Positions 6,103 to 14,525 of a stretch of DNA of 14,525 nt are shown here, piece by piece (the first letter of the stretch is position 1; the number at the start of each line of letters is the position of its first letter). The translations under genes were made by a program, and so were the position numbers. Origin of the DNA: a virus; the UHGV virus genome UHGV-1637634; one strand, given 5' to 3'. The notes under the pieces were generated by a model. The model did no database searches. It was not told the DNA's origin and saw nothing but the letters and a program-made list of their open reading frames with translations.

Positions 6103-6867
6103 ATGAAACTGAAAACGGTCGAGATTAACGGAAAACAATACGCAGAAATTGATACTGCTGGCCTGCCAGTTTATGTGCACGACGATGGTAAAGAAATTGG
6201 CTTCGATGCACCGCTGGCGACAAAAAAAATTACAGAGCTTAATGGCGAGGCAAAAAATCATCGCCTGGCTAAAGAAGCTGCAGAGGAAAAACTGGCTAAG
6301 TTTGCCGCTATCGAAGACCCGAAGAAGGCGATCGAGGCACTGGAAATGCTGTCAAAAATCGACCAGAAAAAGCTGCTCGATGCGGGACAGGTTGACCAGG
6401 TTAAGGCAGAAATTACGAAAAATTTTCAGCAGCAATTAGATGAAGAAAAGCAACGCTCTCAGATGCTGGAGAAGCAGCTTTACGATTCTATGATTGGCGG
6501 TAGTTTTGCGGGTTCAAAATATATTGCCGATAAAATTGCGATCCCGGCAGATTTATTACAAGCCCGCTTCGGGCAGGCATTCAAAGTGGAAGAAGGGAGG
6601 ATCGTTGCTTATGACGCTTCCGGCAACAAAATTTATTCCCGCGCGAAGCCTGGCGAACTGGCGCAGTTTGATGAGGCGCTGGAGTTCCTTGTCGAAAATT
6701 ACCCTCAGAAAGACTACATCCTGAAAGCCAGTGGCAACAATGGCGGCGGCTCCCGTCCGACACAGCATGATATTGGTCAGAAAACGATGAAACGCTCTGC
6801 TTTTGATGCACTGGATGTTGCAGGTAAGCAAAACGCATTGAAAGACGGTATCACAATCGTTGATTAA
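6103..6867 (+). CDS. putative capsid scaffolding protein
   Basis: ATG at 6103 (MKLKTVEINGKQ...) is preferred over the track's GTG at 6031, which lies inside the terminator hairpin. 254 aa with a charged, helical, coiled-coil-like middle region. Sits between the Mu F-like gene and the capsid gene. Assigned by position and composition. Confidence 0.55.
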   Translation: MKLKTVEINGKQYAEIDTAGLPVYVHDDGKEIGFDAPLATKKITELNGEAKNHRLAKEAAEEKLAKFAAIEDPKKAIEALEMLSKIDQKKLLDAGQVDQVKAEITKNFQQQLDEEKQRSQMLEKQLYDSMIGGSFAGSKYIADKIAIPADLLQARFGQAFKVEEGRIVAYDASGNKIYSRAKPGELAQFDEALEFLVENYPQKDYILKASGNNGGGSRPTQHDIGQKTMKRSAFDALDVAGKQNALKDGITIVD

Positions 6868-6965
6868 CACATTTGTCAGCTTCCGGATGGGAGCTGGTGT
6901 CAGGGCTGGATAGCTCATTACTCCATCTATTCACAATTACGCAAATTTTTAAGGAATATTTAATT

Positions 6966-8105
6966 ATGGCTGGAAATACCCTGACCGGGTTGATCCCGAC
7001 TATTTATACCGCCCTGGATGTTGTATCCCGTGAGCAGGTAGGTTTTATCCCTGCGGTAGCAAAAAACGCAAAAGCTGACGCCGCAGCAAAAGATCAGACG
7101 GTAACCGCGCCAGTTGCGCCTGAGGCGAAAACCGAAGATATCGTACCGGGGCCGTCAGCTCCGAATACCGGTGATCAAAATATTGGCACTGTTGATGTAA
7201 AAATTACTAAATCCAAAATGGCACCGGTTAAATGGAATGGTGAAGAACAACTGGCTCTTGGCCCTTCAGGGACTTACAACACCATTCTGGCTGATCAGTT
7301 CAAGCAGGCTTTTCGCGCCCTTGCAAACGAGGTTGAGGCTGATCTTGGTGCGTTGTATTTCGGTGCTTCCCGCGCCGTGGGAACCGCAGGGACAACGCCG
7401 TTTGGTGTTAAAGATGATCTTTCTGATGCTGCTCTGGCTCGTCAGGTTCTGGAGGATAACGGCGCACCGACAACCGATCTGCAGATGGTGCTTGGCTCCA
7501 CTGCCATTGCTAATTTGCGCGGAAAACAGTCTGTATTGTTTAAAGTGAATGAATCCGGCACTGAACAGCTACTGCGTGAGGGCGTGTTGGGGCGTCTGGA
7601 GGGATTCAATATTCACAGTTCGGCAGGTGTGAAACGAGCGCCAAAGGTTGCTGCAACTGGTTATCTCGTGAATGGAGAGAAAAAAGAAGGCGATGTTCTT
7701 ATTTCCATTGATACTGGTTCGGGGAGTATTTCTGCAGGTCAGATTGTTACGTTCGCTGGTGATCCGAATCAGTATGTTGTGGCAGCAGCGACCAGCAATC
7801 TGATTACTCTTGCAGCGCCCGGACTGCGTCAGGATCTGGCCGATGATACTGCCATCACAGTTGTTGGGGCCTTTACTGCAAATATGGCGTTTGATCGCAA
7901 CGCGTTTCTGCTGGCATCCCGTACTCCGGCAATGCCGGAAGGCGGCGATAATGCTGATGATGTAATGAATGTTACGGACCCGATTTCAGGGATTACGTTC
8001 CAGATTGCACTGTATCGTCAGTATCGCCAGGTGCGCTATGAAGTTGGACTGGCATGGGGTGTTTCATCAGTGAAGCCGGCACATGGTTGTCTGATTCTTG
8101 GTTAA
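6966..8105 (+). CDS. major capsid protein
   Basis: ATG 6966 is preceded by AAGGAA at 6951-6956; the track's upstream extension to 6873 has no RBS. 379 aa, located after the scaffold gene and followed by a strong terminator, as expected for a highly expressed coat gene. Assigned by synteny. Confidence 0.65.
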   Translation: MAGNTLTGLIPTIYTALDVVSREQVGFIPAVAKNAKADAAAKDQTVTAPVAPEAKTEDIVPGPSAPNTGDQNIGTVDVKITKSKMAPVKWNGEEQLALGPSGTYNTILADQFKQAFRALANEVEADLGALYFGASRAVGTAGTTPFGVKDDLSDAALARQVLEDNGAPTTDLQMVLGSTAIANLRGKQSVLFKVNESGTEQLLREGVLGRLEGFNIHSSAGVKRAPKVAATGYLVNGEKKEGDVLISIDTGSGSISAGQIVTFAGDPNQYVVAAATSNLITLAAPGLRQDLADDTAITVVGAFTANMAFDRNAFLLASRTPAMPEGGDNADDVMNVTDPISGITFQIALYRQYRQVRYEVGLAWGVSSVKPAHGCLILG

Positions 8106-8115
8106 ACATTCAAAC

Positions 8116-8138
8116 GGGGCTTCGGCCCCATTTTTAAT
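8116..8138 (+). terminator. putative intrinsic terminator downstream of major capsid gene
   Basis: GGGGC-UUCG-GCCCC hairpin at 8116-8129 followed by AUUUUUAAU; 11 nt after the capsid stop codon. Confidence 0.6.
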
Positions 8139-8147
8139 GGGGGGCAT

Positions 8148-8324
8148 ATGGCCGGATTAACTAAAGAGCAAAGAGCACAGCGTGAAGCCGCACAAAAAAC
8201 GCAAATTGAGTTAGTGGTTATGGTGACCGATTATCAGATGTTTCCCGGCGCACCAACTATCGCTAATGTTCATCCTGATGAAGTTGACAACTGGAAGGCT
8301 ATGGGCTGGAAAACTCAGGAGTAA
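8148..8324 (+). CDS. small hypothetical protein (58 aa), absent from the ORF track
   Basis: ATG 8148 to TAA 8322-8324, translation MAGLTKEQRAQREAAQKTQIELVVMVTDYQMFPGAPTIANVHPDEVDNWKAMGWKTQE. A G-run at 8139-8144 lies just upstream. It fills an otherwise non-coding gap between the capsid terminator and the next gene, whose ATG is 3 nt after its stop. Confidence 0.3.
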   Translation: MAGLTKEQRAQREAAQKTQIELVVMVTDYQMFPGAPTIANVHPDEVDNWKAMGWKTQE

Positions 8325-8327
8325 CAC

Positions 8328-8723
8328 ATGATCACTTACGTGACCTGTGATGACGTTGATAATGCGTTTGGGAACGCCTGGACGAGTGAGAACGCTAAAA
8401 ATAAAGCTGTTTTAATGGCTAATGCCTGGCTTAATGGCTTCAACCTGAAAATTAACCCATCCCGTATTCCGGAAGAGGTAAAACTTGCGGGAGCATATGC
8501 AGCCAGAATTGCCTCATTCGGTAAGTTGTTTCAGCAGAAAAATGATTCTGGCGTTGTTATCAGTAAAGCCGTGTCGGCTGACGGGGTCAGTGTATCGAAA
8601 TCATTTTCTGAGTTGCCAGCAAACAGCACTGCATTGCTTGAACCCGATTTACAGCTTGCGATAGCACTGCTGAAACCGTACGGACTTAGTCGCTCACAAG
8701 TCAGGGTTGTGAGGGGGGGATAA
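8328..8723 (+). CDS. putative head-tail connector / adaptor protein
   Basis: 131 aa; first of four small, tightly coupled genes between the capsid and major tail genes. Its stop overlaps the next start (TAATG at 8721-8725). Assigned by synteny with lambda/HK97-like siphoviruses. Confidence 0.5.
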   Translation: MITYVTCDDVDNAFGNAWTSENAKNKAVLMANAWLNGFNLKINPSRIPEEVKLAGAYAARIASFGKLFQQKNDSGVVISKAVSADGVSVSKSFSELPANSTALLEPDLQLAIALLKPYGLSRSQVRVVRGG

Positions 8724-9106
8724 TGGGGCTTCGTGAAGAGATTCAGTCAGAGGTTGCCGCTGCTTTTGATGAGGATTTAGCGGACGCCGTGAGTGATTTT
8801 TCTGGTTCTTACGTTACGCACCGGCACTGGGATCCTGTGACGGAAACTGGCGGCGAATCCACCGCAATCTATACCGGGCGAGGCGTGTTGACACGTTATA
8901 AGCTGGGCAGAATTGATGGGATTAATATTTTGCATGGTGACCTTAAATTAACCGCTCTGGTATGCGAGGTTACGGATAAACCAGCTGTCGACCATATTAT
9001 TGAGATTTATGATCCTGTATCAAGGCAGTTACAACGATACGAGGTAATTACAGCAAGTGTAGATCCTTCCGCATCAGTTTACTCTATCCAGTTAAGGAGA
9101 GCGTAA
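8723..9106 (+). CDS. putative head closure / head-tail joining protein
   Basis: 127 aa; start overlaps the upstream stop and the next gene abuts its stop. Assigned by position in the head-tail joining cluster. Confidence 0.4.
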   Translation: MGLREEIQSEVAAAFDEDLADAVSDFSGSYVTHRHWDPVTETGGESTAIYTGRGVLTRYKLGRIDGINILHGDLKLTALVCEVTDKPAVDHIIEIYDPVSRQLQRYEVITASVDPSASVYSIQLRRA

Positions 9107-9902: not shown

Positions 9903-10865
9903 GTGAGTTCAGGTGCAAAGGTTATCTCGGCATTTATCCGGGAGACAGTTGCAGGCACTACGCCAGCAAGTGGTGACTGGAGTTTATTAAAACGCACAAG
10001 CTGGGGAGTAAAACCCACCCAGAATAAAGGCGAAAATAATGAGATTGGTGGCTCCCGGATGGCTCAGGGGGCGACGCCTGGCACTGTGGATGTCGGCGGT
10101 GATGTTGGTACCAAATTTCGCTGGGGTCAACATGATGATTTTCTTGCATCCTGTTTCGGCGCGGAATGGTCAGGCGATTCTCTGACAATGGGGAATGAGC
10201 GAATAACATTTTCTCTGGCGACCTATGCGTCCGATGTCGGAATTGCCTCTGTCGTCAGAGGAGCGCAGGTTGGCTCATGGAAAATGCAGATCCCTAACGA
10301 CGGCGATATTACAGCGACCGTAACCTTTGCCGGGCTGGGCTGGGAATCAAAGGCCGATGATACGAATTTTATCAAAGGCGAACCTGTGGATAGTGCAGGA
10401 AAGTTACGCTATTCGTTTAAGGAGGTTTCAGCAGTAAGCCTGAATGGTGTTGCCGGAGGTAACGGTTTTTGTATCGACAGTTTTGATATTCAGTTCGATA
10501 ACAAACTCCAGACACAGCATTGTATCGGGACTGGCTCGCCTTATGCAGGAGCAAATATTCCGACTACTTTTACACCGTCCGGTACGGTGACGCTTTCATG
10601 GTCTAAAGCCGCGTGGGAAATCTGGAGTAAAACACTGACTGGAGAAACAGTTCCGTTCAGCTTCACGCTTTCGAATGGAGAGGGGGCATACACTTTCAGT
10701 TTCCCGAAGGTTCAGGTGTCAGGTGAATGGCCTGATGGGGGTAATACTGACATTATCCAGGTTCAATTGAGCATTACCGCAGCAGATGAAGCACCTACGA
10801 TAACCAGAAAAAAATGCTCCCCGACTGCCGTGATCGCAAAAGCCAGTGCTGATGCGATTAGTTGA
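9903..10865 (+). CDS. major tail (tube) protein
   Basis: GTG start at 9903 preceded by a strong SD, AGGAGG at about 9891-9896. 320 aa, immediately upstream of the G/GT chaperone pair. Position and size fit a siphovirus major tail protein. Confidence 0.65.
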   Translation: MSSGAKVISAFIRETVAGTTPASGDWSLLKRTSWGVKPTQNKGENNEIGGSRMAQGATPGTVDVGGDVGTKFRWGQHDDFLASCFGAEWSGDSLTMGNERITFSLATYASDVGIASVVRGAQVGSWKMQIPNDGDITATVTFAGLGWESKADDTNFIKGEPVDSAGKLRYSFKEVSAVSLNGVAGGNGFCIDSFDIQFDNKLQTQHCIGTGSPYAGANIPTTFTPSGTVTLSWSKAAWEIWSKTLTGETVPFSFTLSNGEGAYTFSFPKVQVSGEWPDGGNTDIIQVQLSITAADEAPTITRKKCSPTAVIAKASADAIS

Positions 10866-10913: not shown

Positions 10914-11375
10914 ATGAGGTTATGGATGTTTATTCTTAATCAGAAAATTATCATCGGTGGAGAACGCTGGTTTACGCCAATGAAGGACTTAAAACCTGTA
11001 GACGGGTTAAAACTGTTGGTGGCAAGCAGCGATAACGATCAGTATCGCTCCCGTAATGCATTAATCCGTCGTCACATTGAGAAAATGGATGCCAGTTTGC
11101 ACGTCGGAACGAAGGAGTTTGATATTTCAAAAGTTTCCGAGGTAGATTCTGTTGATGATTTACTCATTGATAATGCTGCTCGTTATCTGCTGAAAGACTG
11201 GAAAGGGGTTGGTGAACTGGTTAATGGTGCTGAGGTTGCACTGGAATATACGCCAGAACGAGGGATCGCGCTGCTTAAGCAGAATCCAGAGTTGTACTGG
11301 CAGATCCTTGCAGAAGCAGCCAGCATCGCCCAGGGTAAAGAGCAGCAGAAGCAGGATACGATAAAAAAGCCATAG
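10914..11375 (+). CDS. tail assembly chaperone (lambda gpG-like)
   Basis: 153 aa ORF between the major tail and tape measure genes. Ends ...DTIKKP with the A_AAA_AAG slippery heptamer one codon before its TAG stop. Confidence 0.65.
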   Translation: MRLWMFILNQKIIIGGERWFTPMKDLKPVDGLKLLVASSDNDQYRSRNALIRRHIEKMDASLHVGTKEFDISKVSEVDSVDDLLIDNAARYLLKDWKGVGELVNGAEVALEYTPERGIALLKQNPELYWQILAEAASIAQGKEQQKQDTIKKP

Positions 11376-11683
11376 CCGCCCAGCGGTGGTTATCGGAGTT
11401 CGGGGGAGAAAGGGGGGAAAAGGCAAGATGGAAGCGAGAAAAACTCAGGTTGCCACCGATACCGGAACCAGAAATAGACCCGGTGCTTAAGGAATTGTTG
11501 TACGCCTATTCGGTAATATCCCGTGCCCGACGTTATGCTGGAATGACCGGGGTGCCTTTGCCTTTATCTCTGACAGAGATAAATGAATATTTAGCCACTC
11601 ATCCGGTATTGATTGAGCGCGATGAGTTTGAAGCAGTGATCTTTGCACTGGATGACCAGTATTTTCAGGAGCAGTGTGTGTAG
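10914..11683 (+). CDS. tail assembly chaperone frameshift fusion (lambda gpGT-like), made by -1 frameshift at 11363-11369
   Basis: The -1 frame is continuous from the slippery site into the ORF listed as 11450..11683. That ORF would otherwise need a TTG start and has no RBS. A G/GT frameshift pair at this position is conserved among tailed dsDNA phages. Confidence 0.55.
11363..11369 (+). promoter_or_regulatory. programmed -1 ribosomal frameshift slippery heptamer A_AAA_AAG
   Basis: ATA AAA AAG CCA TAG: AAA and AAG are zero-frame codons of the chaperone ORF. The -1 frame (AAA AAA GCC ATA GCC ...) has no stop from 11363 through 11683, which I checked codon by codon up to 11452. A short possible stem CCGC-cca-GCGG begins 7 nt downstream at 11376-11386. 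Confidence 0.6.
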
Positions 11684-11846: not shown

Positions 11847-14492
11847 ATGGCAGAGCAAACCTCGCGTCTCGCAATAATTATTGATAGCACTGGAGCAAAA
11901 AATAATGCTGACAATCTGACCTCCTCATTAGTCAAAATGACGCAGGCCGGGGAAACTGCTGCAAATAGCGCAGGGAAAGTGACTAAGGCAACAGAAGATG
12001 AGAAGAACGCGCTCGCAAAATTAAAAGCAGCTATTGATCCAGTTGGTGCCGCAATTGATACTGTCGGTCGACGCTATTCTGAATTAAAGAAATTTTTCGA
12101 TAAAGGGCTTATTGATAAAGAAGAATATGAATTTCTTGTCCGTAAACTTAATGAAACCACAGAGGAATTGAGCGGGGTTGCGCAAGCGCAGAGAGAAGCC
12201 GAGAAGGCCGGAAAACTTGCTGCCGCCCAGCAGGAATCGCAGGCTCAGGCCTTTCAAAGAATGCTGGACAAGATCGACCCTCTGGTTGCGGCGCTAAGAA
12301 ATCTTGAACAACAGCAGGATGAACTTAATGCTGCGTTTGCATCCGGGAAAATAAATGGTTCTCAGTTTGAGAATTATAGCCGAAAAATACAGGAAACACG
12401 GCGAGAGCTTACCGGAGAGGCTCAGGCAGAGCGAGAAGCAGCAAAAGCGCATGATGAACAGGTTGCTGCTTTGCAACGTCTGATTGCTCAACTTGACCCT
12501 GTCGGAACTGCTTTTAATCGTCTGGTAGAACAACAGAAACAGCTCAATGAAGCAAAAGCTAAGGGGATGCTCTCTCCTGAAATGTATGAGGAACTTTCTG
12601 GAAAACTTCGTGCTATGCGGAGTGAGCTTGAGGTTACTCAATCTCAATTAAGCAAAACCGGAATGTCGGCAAAACAAACGGCTTTTGCTATGCGCATGTT
12701 GCCTGCACAAATGACGGATATTGTTGTTGGGTTGTCCACTGGTCAGTCGCCTTTTATGGTGTTAATGCAGCAGGGCGGCCAGCTAAAAGATATGTTCGGT
12801 GGGATTGGCCCGGCGATCAAAGGTGTTGGTTCTTATGTGCTGGGATTAATTAATCCTTTTACCCTGGCCGCAGCAGCCGTTGGCGTCTTAGGGCTGGCTT
12901 ACTATAAAGGCTCTCAGGAGCAGGACGAATTTAATAAATCTCTTATTCTTACCGGAAATCAGTTGGGGACAACCAGCGGGCAATTGGCCGATATAGCTCA
13001 ACGTGCCGGGAATGCGGCTGATTCGACAACTGGCGCTGCGGCGGCAGTATTAAATCAGCTTGTGCGTTCGGGAAAGGTAGCGAGCAGTTCGCTGGAGCAA
13101 GTGACGACAGCGATAGTAAAAACGAGCGAAGTAACAGGAATATCAACCGAACAACTGGTTAATGACTTCAATGAAATTGCAAAGGATCCTGTCAGTGCCA
13201 TATCAAAACTTAATGATCAGTACCATTTTCTGACAATTGCGACTTATAACCAGATTAAGGCGCTACAGGATGAAGGGAACCAGCAGGAGGCCGCCCGCAT
13301 TGCGACAGAAGCATACTCATCCTCAATGATCCAGCGCACCAACCAGATTAAAGAAAATCTTGGTTATCTTGAGACTGCATGGAAAGCTGTCGCAGACTCC
13401 GCAAAATGGGCATGGGATTCCATGCTGGATATTGGCCGTGAGGCCTCCCTTGATCAAAAAATCTCAGATGTTCTCCGTCAAATTGATGAAATAGAAAAAA
13501 ATACCCGACCCGGAGTTTTCGGGTTAGGTGGCATTGGAGATGGCGGAGCTCAAAATAAAAGGCTGGCACGATTAAAGCAGCAATTGGGCGTACTTCAAGC
13601 AGAAAAAATTGCTCAGGACGTCCTAAATTCATCAATAAACGATTACAACAAGCGACAACAGGAAGGAATTGAACTCAGACAGAGAGCAGATGCCTTTTCA
13701 AAACAATATCAGACCCGGGAGCAGCAGAGAGCTAGTGAACTTGCAAAACTGGAAAAGCTAAAGAGTCAGTATTCAAAGGAAGAATATAATAATTTTATCG
13801 CTCAAATAAATGAGCGTTATAAAGATCCAAAGCAACCAAAGGCGAAAGGTTATTCGGATGATGCTGCCCAACGAATGATTGATCATCTGAATCAACAGAA
13901 TGCGTTACTAAGTTCACAAACTGAATTAACCGTTAAATTAAGTTCCTCTGAACAGGAACTGGTTAAGTGGCGTCAGCAGATTGCCGACCTGGAGTCACGA
14001 CCGTCATCGAAATTAACCCAGGATCAGAAATCGCTTCTCTTACACCGGGAAGAAATAACCGCGTTGATGGAGAAAAATGTTGCGATTGAAAAAAATAACA
14101 GGCTAATCAAGGAATCCGCCGAAATAGCTGCATGGCGTGATTCATTGCAGGCTTCGATTGATAATCGTCAACAGGGGTATGATATTCAGATTGCTGGTTA
14201 TGGGGTTGGCGATAAAAATCAGCAACGCCAGCAGGAATTACTGCGGATTGAACGTGAATATAACAATCAGCGTCTGCAACTTGAACGTGACTATGCAGAT
14301 AAATCCCGTGGGATGTCAAATCATGTTTTTCAGGAGAAAATGCAGGCTCTGAATGATGCTCTGGAACGAGAAAAAGAAATTGTCAGACAGAAAAACGAGC
14401 AGCTCGATATTCAGGCAGGAGACTGGGTTAGTGGTGCCTCCCAGGGATTCAATAACTGGCTGGATGACACGGTAATGACTCCAACTTATTGA
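11847..14492 (+). CDS. tail tape measure protein (lambda gpH-like), C-terminally truncated by an IS1 insertion; probable pseudogene
   Basis: The segment [38 protein letters not shown]...[13 protein letters not shown] closely resembles the lambda gpH core ([38 protein letters not shown]...FNKTLVLSGNQAG, from memory). Long coiled-coil regions. The final 7 codons and the TGA stop (14471-14492) are read from the IS1 terminal repeat, so the native C-terminal part of the protein is missing. Confidence 0.85.
12009..12680 (+). repeat. three diverged tandem repeats of about 73-80 codons in the tape measure N-terminal region
   Basis: Protein-level repeats seen in translation: ...[12 protein letters not shown]...[17 protein letters not shown]; ...[12 protein letters not shown]...[17 protein letters not shown]; ...[12 protein letters not shown]...[14 protein letters not shown]. 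The (I/L)DP motifs lie at about 12033, 12273 and 12493. DNA copies are diverged, not identical. Confidence 0.4.
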
Positions 14493-14525
14493 TAGTGTTT
14501 TATGTTCAGATAATGCCCGATGACT
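14471..14525 (-). mobile_element. IS1 insertion sequence, terminal 55 bp (insB-proximal inverted repeat); element continues beyond window end
   Basis: GGTAATGACTCCAACTTATTGATAGTGTTTTATGTTCAGATAATGCCCGATGACT is the reverse complement of the IS1 right end as I recall it (...GTCATCGGGCATTATCTGAACATAAAACACTATCAATAAGTTGGAGTCATTACC). It begins exactly where similarity of the tape measure protein to gpH breaks off. Confidence 0.8.
14486..14525 (-). CDS. insB: IS1 transposase InsB, C-terminal codons only (partial; rest lies beyond window)
   Basis: The minus strand of 14486-14525 reads ...[12 protein letters not shown] stop, matching the InsB C-terminus as I recall it; the stop codon is at 14486-14488 in + coordinates. 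Confidence 0.6.

Follow-up and report, generated by a model that had tools for sequence, protein, structure and literature searches.

The prophage module and its setting

The DNA analysed here (the window) is a single stretch of 14,525 nucleotides and represents, in a lambdoid prophage of Rac type, the block of late morphogenesis genes. The window itself contains morphogenesis genes only, without flanks, and synteny with Rac was read in the 99%-identical module of Escherichia coli E62. In E62 the homologous block is flanked by racR-ydaS-ydaT-ydaU-ydaV...trkG-ynaK and, on the other side, by the tail genes M, L, K, I and J together with lom, stfR, tfaR and pinR; it adjoins uspF and ompN, that is, the Rac locus, with ydaY immediately preceding the tape measure gene.

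Every one of the 16 genes that precede the tape measure gene in the window is full-length and gap-free with respect to E62, such that the only lesion visible within the 14.5-kb window is the junction with an IS1 element described below. These genes encode two hypothetical proteins, both terminase subunits, the portal, a Mu-F-like head protein, a DUF6651 protein, a P22-type capsid protein, five small head-tail proteins, the tail terminator, the tail tube and the ydaY pair. The terminase small subunit gene (1117-2211) is unusually long, encoding 364 aa with a PF03592 Terminase_2 assignment, and is also the most divergent gene relative to E62, at 95.6% amino acid identity against 98-100% for its neighbours; the divergence suggests local mosaicism.

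The tail tube gene occupies 9903-10865, upstream of a putative chaperone pair and of the tape measure gene, which starts at 11847. The position of the latter, downstream of a tube gene and a G/GT-type chaperone pair, fits that of a gpH-type gene. In the chaperone region (10914-11683) the ydaY-like ORF ends ...ATA AAA AAG CCA TAG. Included in this end is A AAA AAG (11363-11369), a canonical slippery heptamer for -1 frameshifting, from which the -1 frame stays open through a 77-aa ORF at 11450-11683. Judged from these signals, the ydaY-like ORF and the 77-aa ORF look like a lambda G/GT-type tail assembly chaperone pair expressed by programmed frameshifting. In RefSeq each has a gene entry of its own, one named 'protein YdaY' and the other 'hypothetical protein'.

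The truncated tape measure gene

The tape measure ORF (11847-14492) encodes 881 aa and is composite. By homology to E62, positions 11847-14470 on the plus strand comprise the 5' 81% of a lambda-gpH-type tape measure gene of the Rac-type prophage (codons 1-874 plus 2 nt); on translation, positions 14471-14492 of the same strand provide a tail encoded by IS1, which consists of the third base of a hybrid Thr875, the residues VMTPTY and a TGA stop. The intact counterpart in E62 is 1077 aa long (WP_001703076.1) and shares 99.5% identity with the window product over 875 aa. The window product comprises 875 native residues and 6 from IS1, and lacks the last 202 of the intact protein. Codon 875 is made up of AC from the gene and G from IS1, which still specifies Thr, and past this residue the window reads VMTPTY followed by the stop, where the intact protein reads KDISEQIK... 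and the intact gene runs across the junction as ...NNWLDDTKDISEQ.... Collinearity with intact tape measure genes ends exactly at base 14470, and the preliminary description of this DNA, in which the ORF was said to run straight into the IS1 repeat, is borne out at this point. Its statement that the ORF stops 7 codons later is essentially right, given the hybrid codon 875 followed by 6 IS1 codons and the stop.

Two Pfam domains are present in the 881-aa product, TMP_2 at aa 267-471 (E = 8e-82) and TMP_4 at aa 671-748 (E = 2e-24). In the intact protein the Tape_meas_lam_C domain (PF09718) covers aa 858-932, and the break at residues 874/875 falls inside it; a Pfam search with the 881-aa product of the window returned no PF09718 hit. 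The claim of insertional truncation thus holds, with 202 of the 1077 residues lost and most of Tape_meas_lam_C gone. The product is a truncated member of the gpH type and its gene is a pseudogene.

The IS1 end and the junction

Positions 14471-14525 are the right (IRR) end of an element of IS1A/IS1B type, lying on the minus strand. Two annotated IS1B copies of E. coli ET734 match this segment at 55/55 positions (blastn E = 6e-24), which is the outcome of the BLAST comparison that the preliminary description had proposed and which agrees with its reading of everything from 14471 onwards as IS1 terminal inverted repeat. The segment begins GGTAATGACTCCAACTTATTGATAG... (also given as GGTAATGACTCCAACTTATTGATAGTG...), and the terminal inverted repeat characteristic of IS1, GGTAATGACTCCAACTTA... 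at the IRR end, is present at the end of the window. The visible part of the element amounts to 55 nt, where the window stops, and in a sister contig with the same junction (L005) 140 of 140 nt are identical to both the IS1B of ET734 and the IS1A of strain 2017.01.04CC. From these matches the IS1 identity of the window end is considered secure, far beyond chance.

The minus strand at 14486-14524 translates as the last 12 codons and the stop of the IS1 transposase (InsB / InsAB'), as had also been noted earlier for the InsB C-terminus. In ET734 the annotated CDS of the IS1 transposase ends at the very position that corresponds to the stop codon here, 14486-14488, and a 26-aa fragment called in a second sister contig (L006) matches PF03400, DDE_Tnp_IS1. 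The transposase gene is oriented opposite to the tape measure gene.

The junction at 14470/14471 is unambiguous, in that not a single base is common to the gene and to IS1 at the boundary. The 9 bp adjoining the IS1 end, GGATGACAC, are read directly from the sequence at 14462-14470, where they had been placed before, and form the predicted target-site copy. Local GC content at the insertion site is 45-54%, against 45% for the whole gene, and the idea of an unusually AT-rich target site was accordingly rejected.

The far side of the element

The best explanation of these features is that IS1 inserted in the tape measure gene and truncated it, leaving a prophage that is probably tail-defective, and we hold this with high confidence. 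An IS1A/IS1B-type element would have transposed into the tape measure gene of the E. coli Rac-type lambdoid prophage between 14470 and 14471, and the ORF now runs on past codon 875 into the inverted repeat of IS1 and stops after 6 foreign codons, at 881 aa in place of 1077 aa. What form the insertion took depends on the far side of the element. Simple transposition is the commoner outcome for IS1, and a simple insertion with a 9-bp duplication is the reading that we favour, as a probable one. Under a simple insertion the far junction is predicted to read from the IS1 left end, ...CAGTAAGTTGGCAGCATCACC, through GGATGACAC into the resumed gene, TAAGGATATCAGTGAGCAG; the patterns searched for gave the gene resuming after the duplication as TAAGGATATCAG..., and the IS1 left end would adjoin GGATGACAC-TAAGGATATC.... 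The extension downstream that the preliminary description had called for goes part of the way: in the sister contigs IS1 sequence extends at least 140 nt past 14470, where the contigs end. Indeed, every public contig with the junction stops within 140 nt of it. Searches for the far junction, comprising the left end of IS1, a duplication of 8-10 bp and the gene resuming after it, gave no match in JGI metagenome contigs, IMG/VR viral contigs, GTDB species representatives or, with a synthetic junction query, 5,426 complete E. coli genomes. The near junction served as a positive control and was likewise absent from these four collections, so that this result is uninformative on structure.

Protein queries were directed at what would follow the element. 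The ORF predicted after IS1 matches a cluster of 189-aa C-terminal fragments (P0002, 177 members), the representative of which lies on a contig with a different lesion, without IS1. The TTG-initiated fusion MAASPDDTKD..., predicted on the E62 sequence, was not found in the protein collection. The 189-aa ORF (MFDGMTDALG...LSG) is the C-terminal end of the tape measure protein and occurs as a separate protein on 859 contigs, complete genomes included (P0025); since it is called on so many contigs, broken copies of the gene must be widespread in E. coli.

The main competitor of simple insertion is a rearrangement associated with IS1, either an adjacent deletion or IS1-IS1 recombination leading to inversion or deletion, of which the IS1 end in the window would be the mark. 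Were this so, the element would not be followed by the remaining 3' sequence of the tape measure gene, nor perhaps by the tail genes downstream of it, there would be no 9-bp duplication and the frame would not resume, and the prophage would still be tail-defective. Other strains show both kinds of event in this very gene. In 2017.01.04CC and ST12468 a deletion has left a single IS1A between the minor head gene and mid-tape-measure sequence, and in ET734 the flank of the tape-measure-side end of one IS1B copy recurs, inverted, beside the other copy, the signature of an IS1-IS1 inversion. Moreover, the strains with the present allele are evidently repeat-rich, given that their contigs never exceed 29 kb. 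Against rearrangement, simple insertions are also known in the gene. Strain EC2 and three SW0716 wastewater genomes contain a clean 768-bp IS1 located 24 bp downstream of the window's site; it has the same orientation and is accompanied by a duplication of 9 bp (AGCAGATAA), and the gene resumes after it. The IS1X2 of ET734 is a simple insertion farther upstream, where the flanking matches to the window overlap by 8 bp (13998-14005), an overlap consistent with a target duplication. Added to this are the greater frequency of simple transposition in IS1 and the window itself, which has no sign of a deletion. We consider rearrangement possible, but less likely than simple insertion.

The copies of IS1 that interrupt or border the gene in these comparison sequences lie at L002:6795-7562, at L001:3306-4073, 6307-7073 and 8058-8825, and at L008:4287-5054. 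RefSeq annotates the analogous IS1-interrupted alleles as pseudogenes. The possibility that the present allele and that of EC2 derive from the same event was rejected, since the sites are 24 bp apart and the IS1 copies only 94% identical. Two IS1 variants have therefore entered the gene 24 bp apart, in lineages unrelated to each other and in the same orientation. In other complete genomes no fewer than three additional IS1 copies interrupt the gene or border it, and the window's allele has spread to dozens of sequenced samples. It is conceivable from this that the distal part of the gene is a preferred IS1 target, or that its inactivation has repeatedly been selected as prophage domestication, but we think either unlikely. 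With some five events in a 3.2-kb gene, two insertions within 24 bp are not statistically remarkable, being estimated here to arise by chance in ~10-15% of cases.

Probable consequences for tail assembly

Lambda builds its tails around the tape measure protein, beginning at the tip complex and proceeding upward. Since the tape measure is anchored in that complex when assembly starts, the truncated protein should not support assembly. The intact homologue aligns to residues 57-850 of lambda gpH at 28% identity (E = 3e-79), with residue 874 aligned to residue 643 of the 853 in gpH. The preliminary description had put the continuation of gpH beyond this point at more than 200 residues, and the count is indeed 210 for gpH and 202 for the actual 1077-aa homologue. 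Within the missing part, gpH 818-842 maps to residues 1045-1069 of the intact homologue, which are absent from the truncated product. In the lambda virion these gpH residues form a three-helix coiled coil in the lumen of the tail tip, where they are supported by a gpI trimer (PMC10721106).

By analogy, the truncated protein, lacking the C-terminal helix that anchors it at the tip, would be unable to seed or complete a tail, and the prophage would make heads but no infectious particles on its own. Reasoning from lambda biology, we consider it quite likely that the prophage is tail-defective or tail-less. This expectation is largely indifferent to the question of the far junction: no complete tape measure ORF would be found at the locus under either simple insertion or rearrangement, so that a tail defect is likely either way.

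It might nevertheless be argued that the truncation is real and yet harmless to phage production, either because the 881-aa protein works or because a re-initiated fragment after IS1, or the tape measure protein of another prophage, compensates for it. Two features could be cited for a fragment, namely an ORF that starts from a TTG within the left end of IS1 and the frequency with which the 189-aa C-terminal ORF (MFDGM...) is called in genomes with broken copies of the gene. In either case, however, the tip-anchoring C-terminal helix of the gpH type would be located on another polypeptide, or be absent altogether, and Katsura and Hendrix are said to have found deletions to be tolerated in the central part of gpH only. 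As for compensation by another prophage, co-resident prophages can rescue defective lambdoid prophages (PMC2669165), but there is no evidence for a second related prophage here. On balance, a harmless truncation is very improbable.

The preferred reading, a truncating insertion with a probable tail defect, has a counterpart in O157 Sakai, where it is common for lambdoid prophages to have morphogenesis or packaging genes hit by IS insertions; such prophages are considered defective, although some of them are still transferred with the help of co-resident ones (PMC2669165). Because of such mobilisation, 'defective' need not mean 'immobile', and, by analogy with the O157 prophages, the defect could be complemented, or repaired by recombination, if the cell carried another lambdoid prophage as well.

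Recurrence of the allele

Among 5,426 complete E. coli genomes surveyed, 698 hold at least 80% of the module and ~700 have an uninterrupted copy of the tape measure gene. None of the 698 module-bearing genomes contains the IS1 junction at 14470/14471, the match always stopping at 14470. The nearest complete genomes match all 14,470 bases in one piece at 99.7% identity and have the gene intact. The junction is derived and not ancestral.

The exact 881-aa product, IS1-encoded tail included, is a named E. coli protein (WP_308125108.1, CAM7496571.1) that occurs in NCBI, JGI, ENA and Logan data; at least 59 public contigs, across 92 index blocks, encode it, and none of them exceeds 29 kb. Assemblies from ENA (ERZ27279742, MEGAHIT k141) and JGI (3300030438) have the same junction, with 1 mismatch in 12.7 kb against the window. 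The stretch of IS1 at the contig end is 55 nt in the window and 140 and 98 nt in these two assemblies (L005 and L006, respectively), which would be the lengths left at a repeat boundary by de Bruijn assemblers with k of ~55, 141 and 99. Short-read assemblers break at multi-copy repeats, and it is for this reason that the window ends 55 nt into IS1. That the junction is an artefact of assembly or a chimera, the real genome having an intact tape measure gene, was rejected as extremely improbable. In favour of an artefact, the visible IS1 is 55 nt long and lies at the window end, in a repeat of the kind at which assemblers may join wrongly. Against it, the ENA and JGI assemblies, which are independent, reach the same junction and continue 140 and 98 nt into IS1, and several sources, NCBI isolates included, together contribute 59 contigs that encode the chimeric 881-aa product. 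We regard the junction as real and as belonging to one recurrent lineage, and the end of the window as a contig break induced by the repeat and not as a biological boundary.

Significance

Insertional inactivation of a prophage gene by IS1 is a textbook process and every component involved here is of a known family. No paper on the window's allele turned up in a literature search covering E. coli prophage tape measure genes interrupted by IS1, although the product of the allele is already in public databases. The case matters little beyond annotation, as one more instance of the decay of lambdoid prophages in E. coli driven by IS elements. In annotation terms, WP_308125108.1, an 881-aa 'tape measure family protein', should be treated as the product of an IS1-truncated pseudogene, and prophage-prediction tools should score the Rac-type prophage as defective in the lineage carrying the allele.

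Comparison with known systems

The Rac prophage of K-12 is a deleted remnant, which has lost the head and tail module and kept ydaY and a fragment of the tape measure gene; the window, by comparison, carries this module in full. With lambda the module shares the gene order of tube, G/GT-like chaperones, tape measure, M, L, K, I and J, and the intact homologue has the same C-terminal domain as gpH, PF09718. It differs in that the intact homologue has 1077 aa against the 853 aa of gpH, with an extra N-terminal region of ~210 aa, and in that the head genes of the Rac-type module are P22-like.

As regards the element, everything visible is identical to IS1 (IS1A/IS1B, 768 bp, IS1 family, DDE_Tnp_IS1), of which one end only is seen here. 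EC2 and three SW0716 wastewater genomes resemble the window in having IS1 in the same tape measure gene and in the same orientation; the IS1 of EC2, however, is at another site and of another variant (94% identity over 138 nt), which makes it an independent event. Compared, finally, with the IS-disrupted lambdoid prophages of O157 Sakai, the decay is of the same kind, in other prophages and by other IS insertions, and it is in those prophages that transfer with help has been shown.
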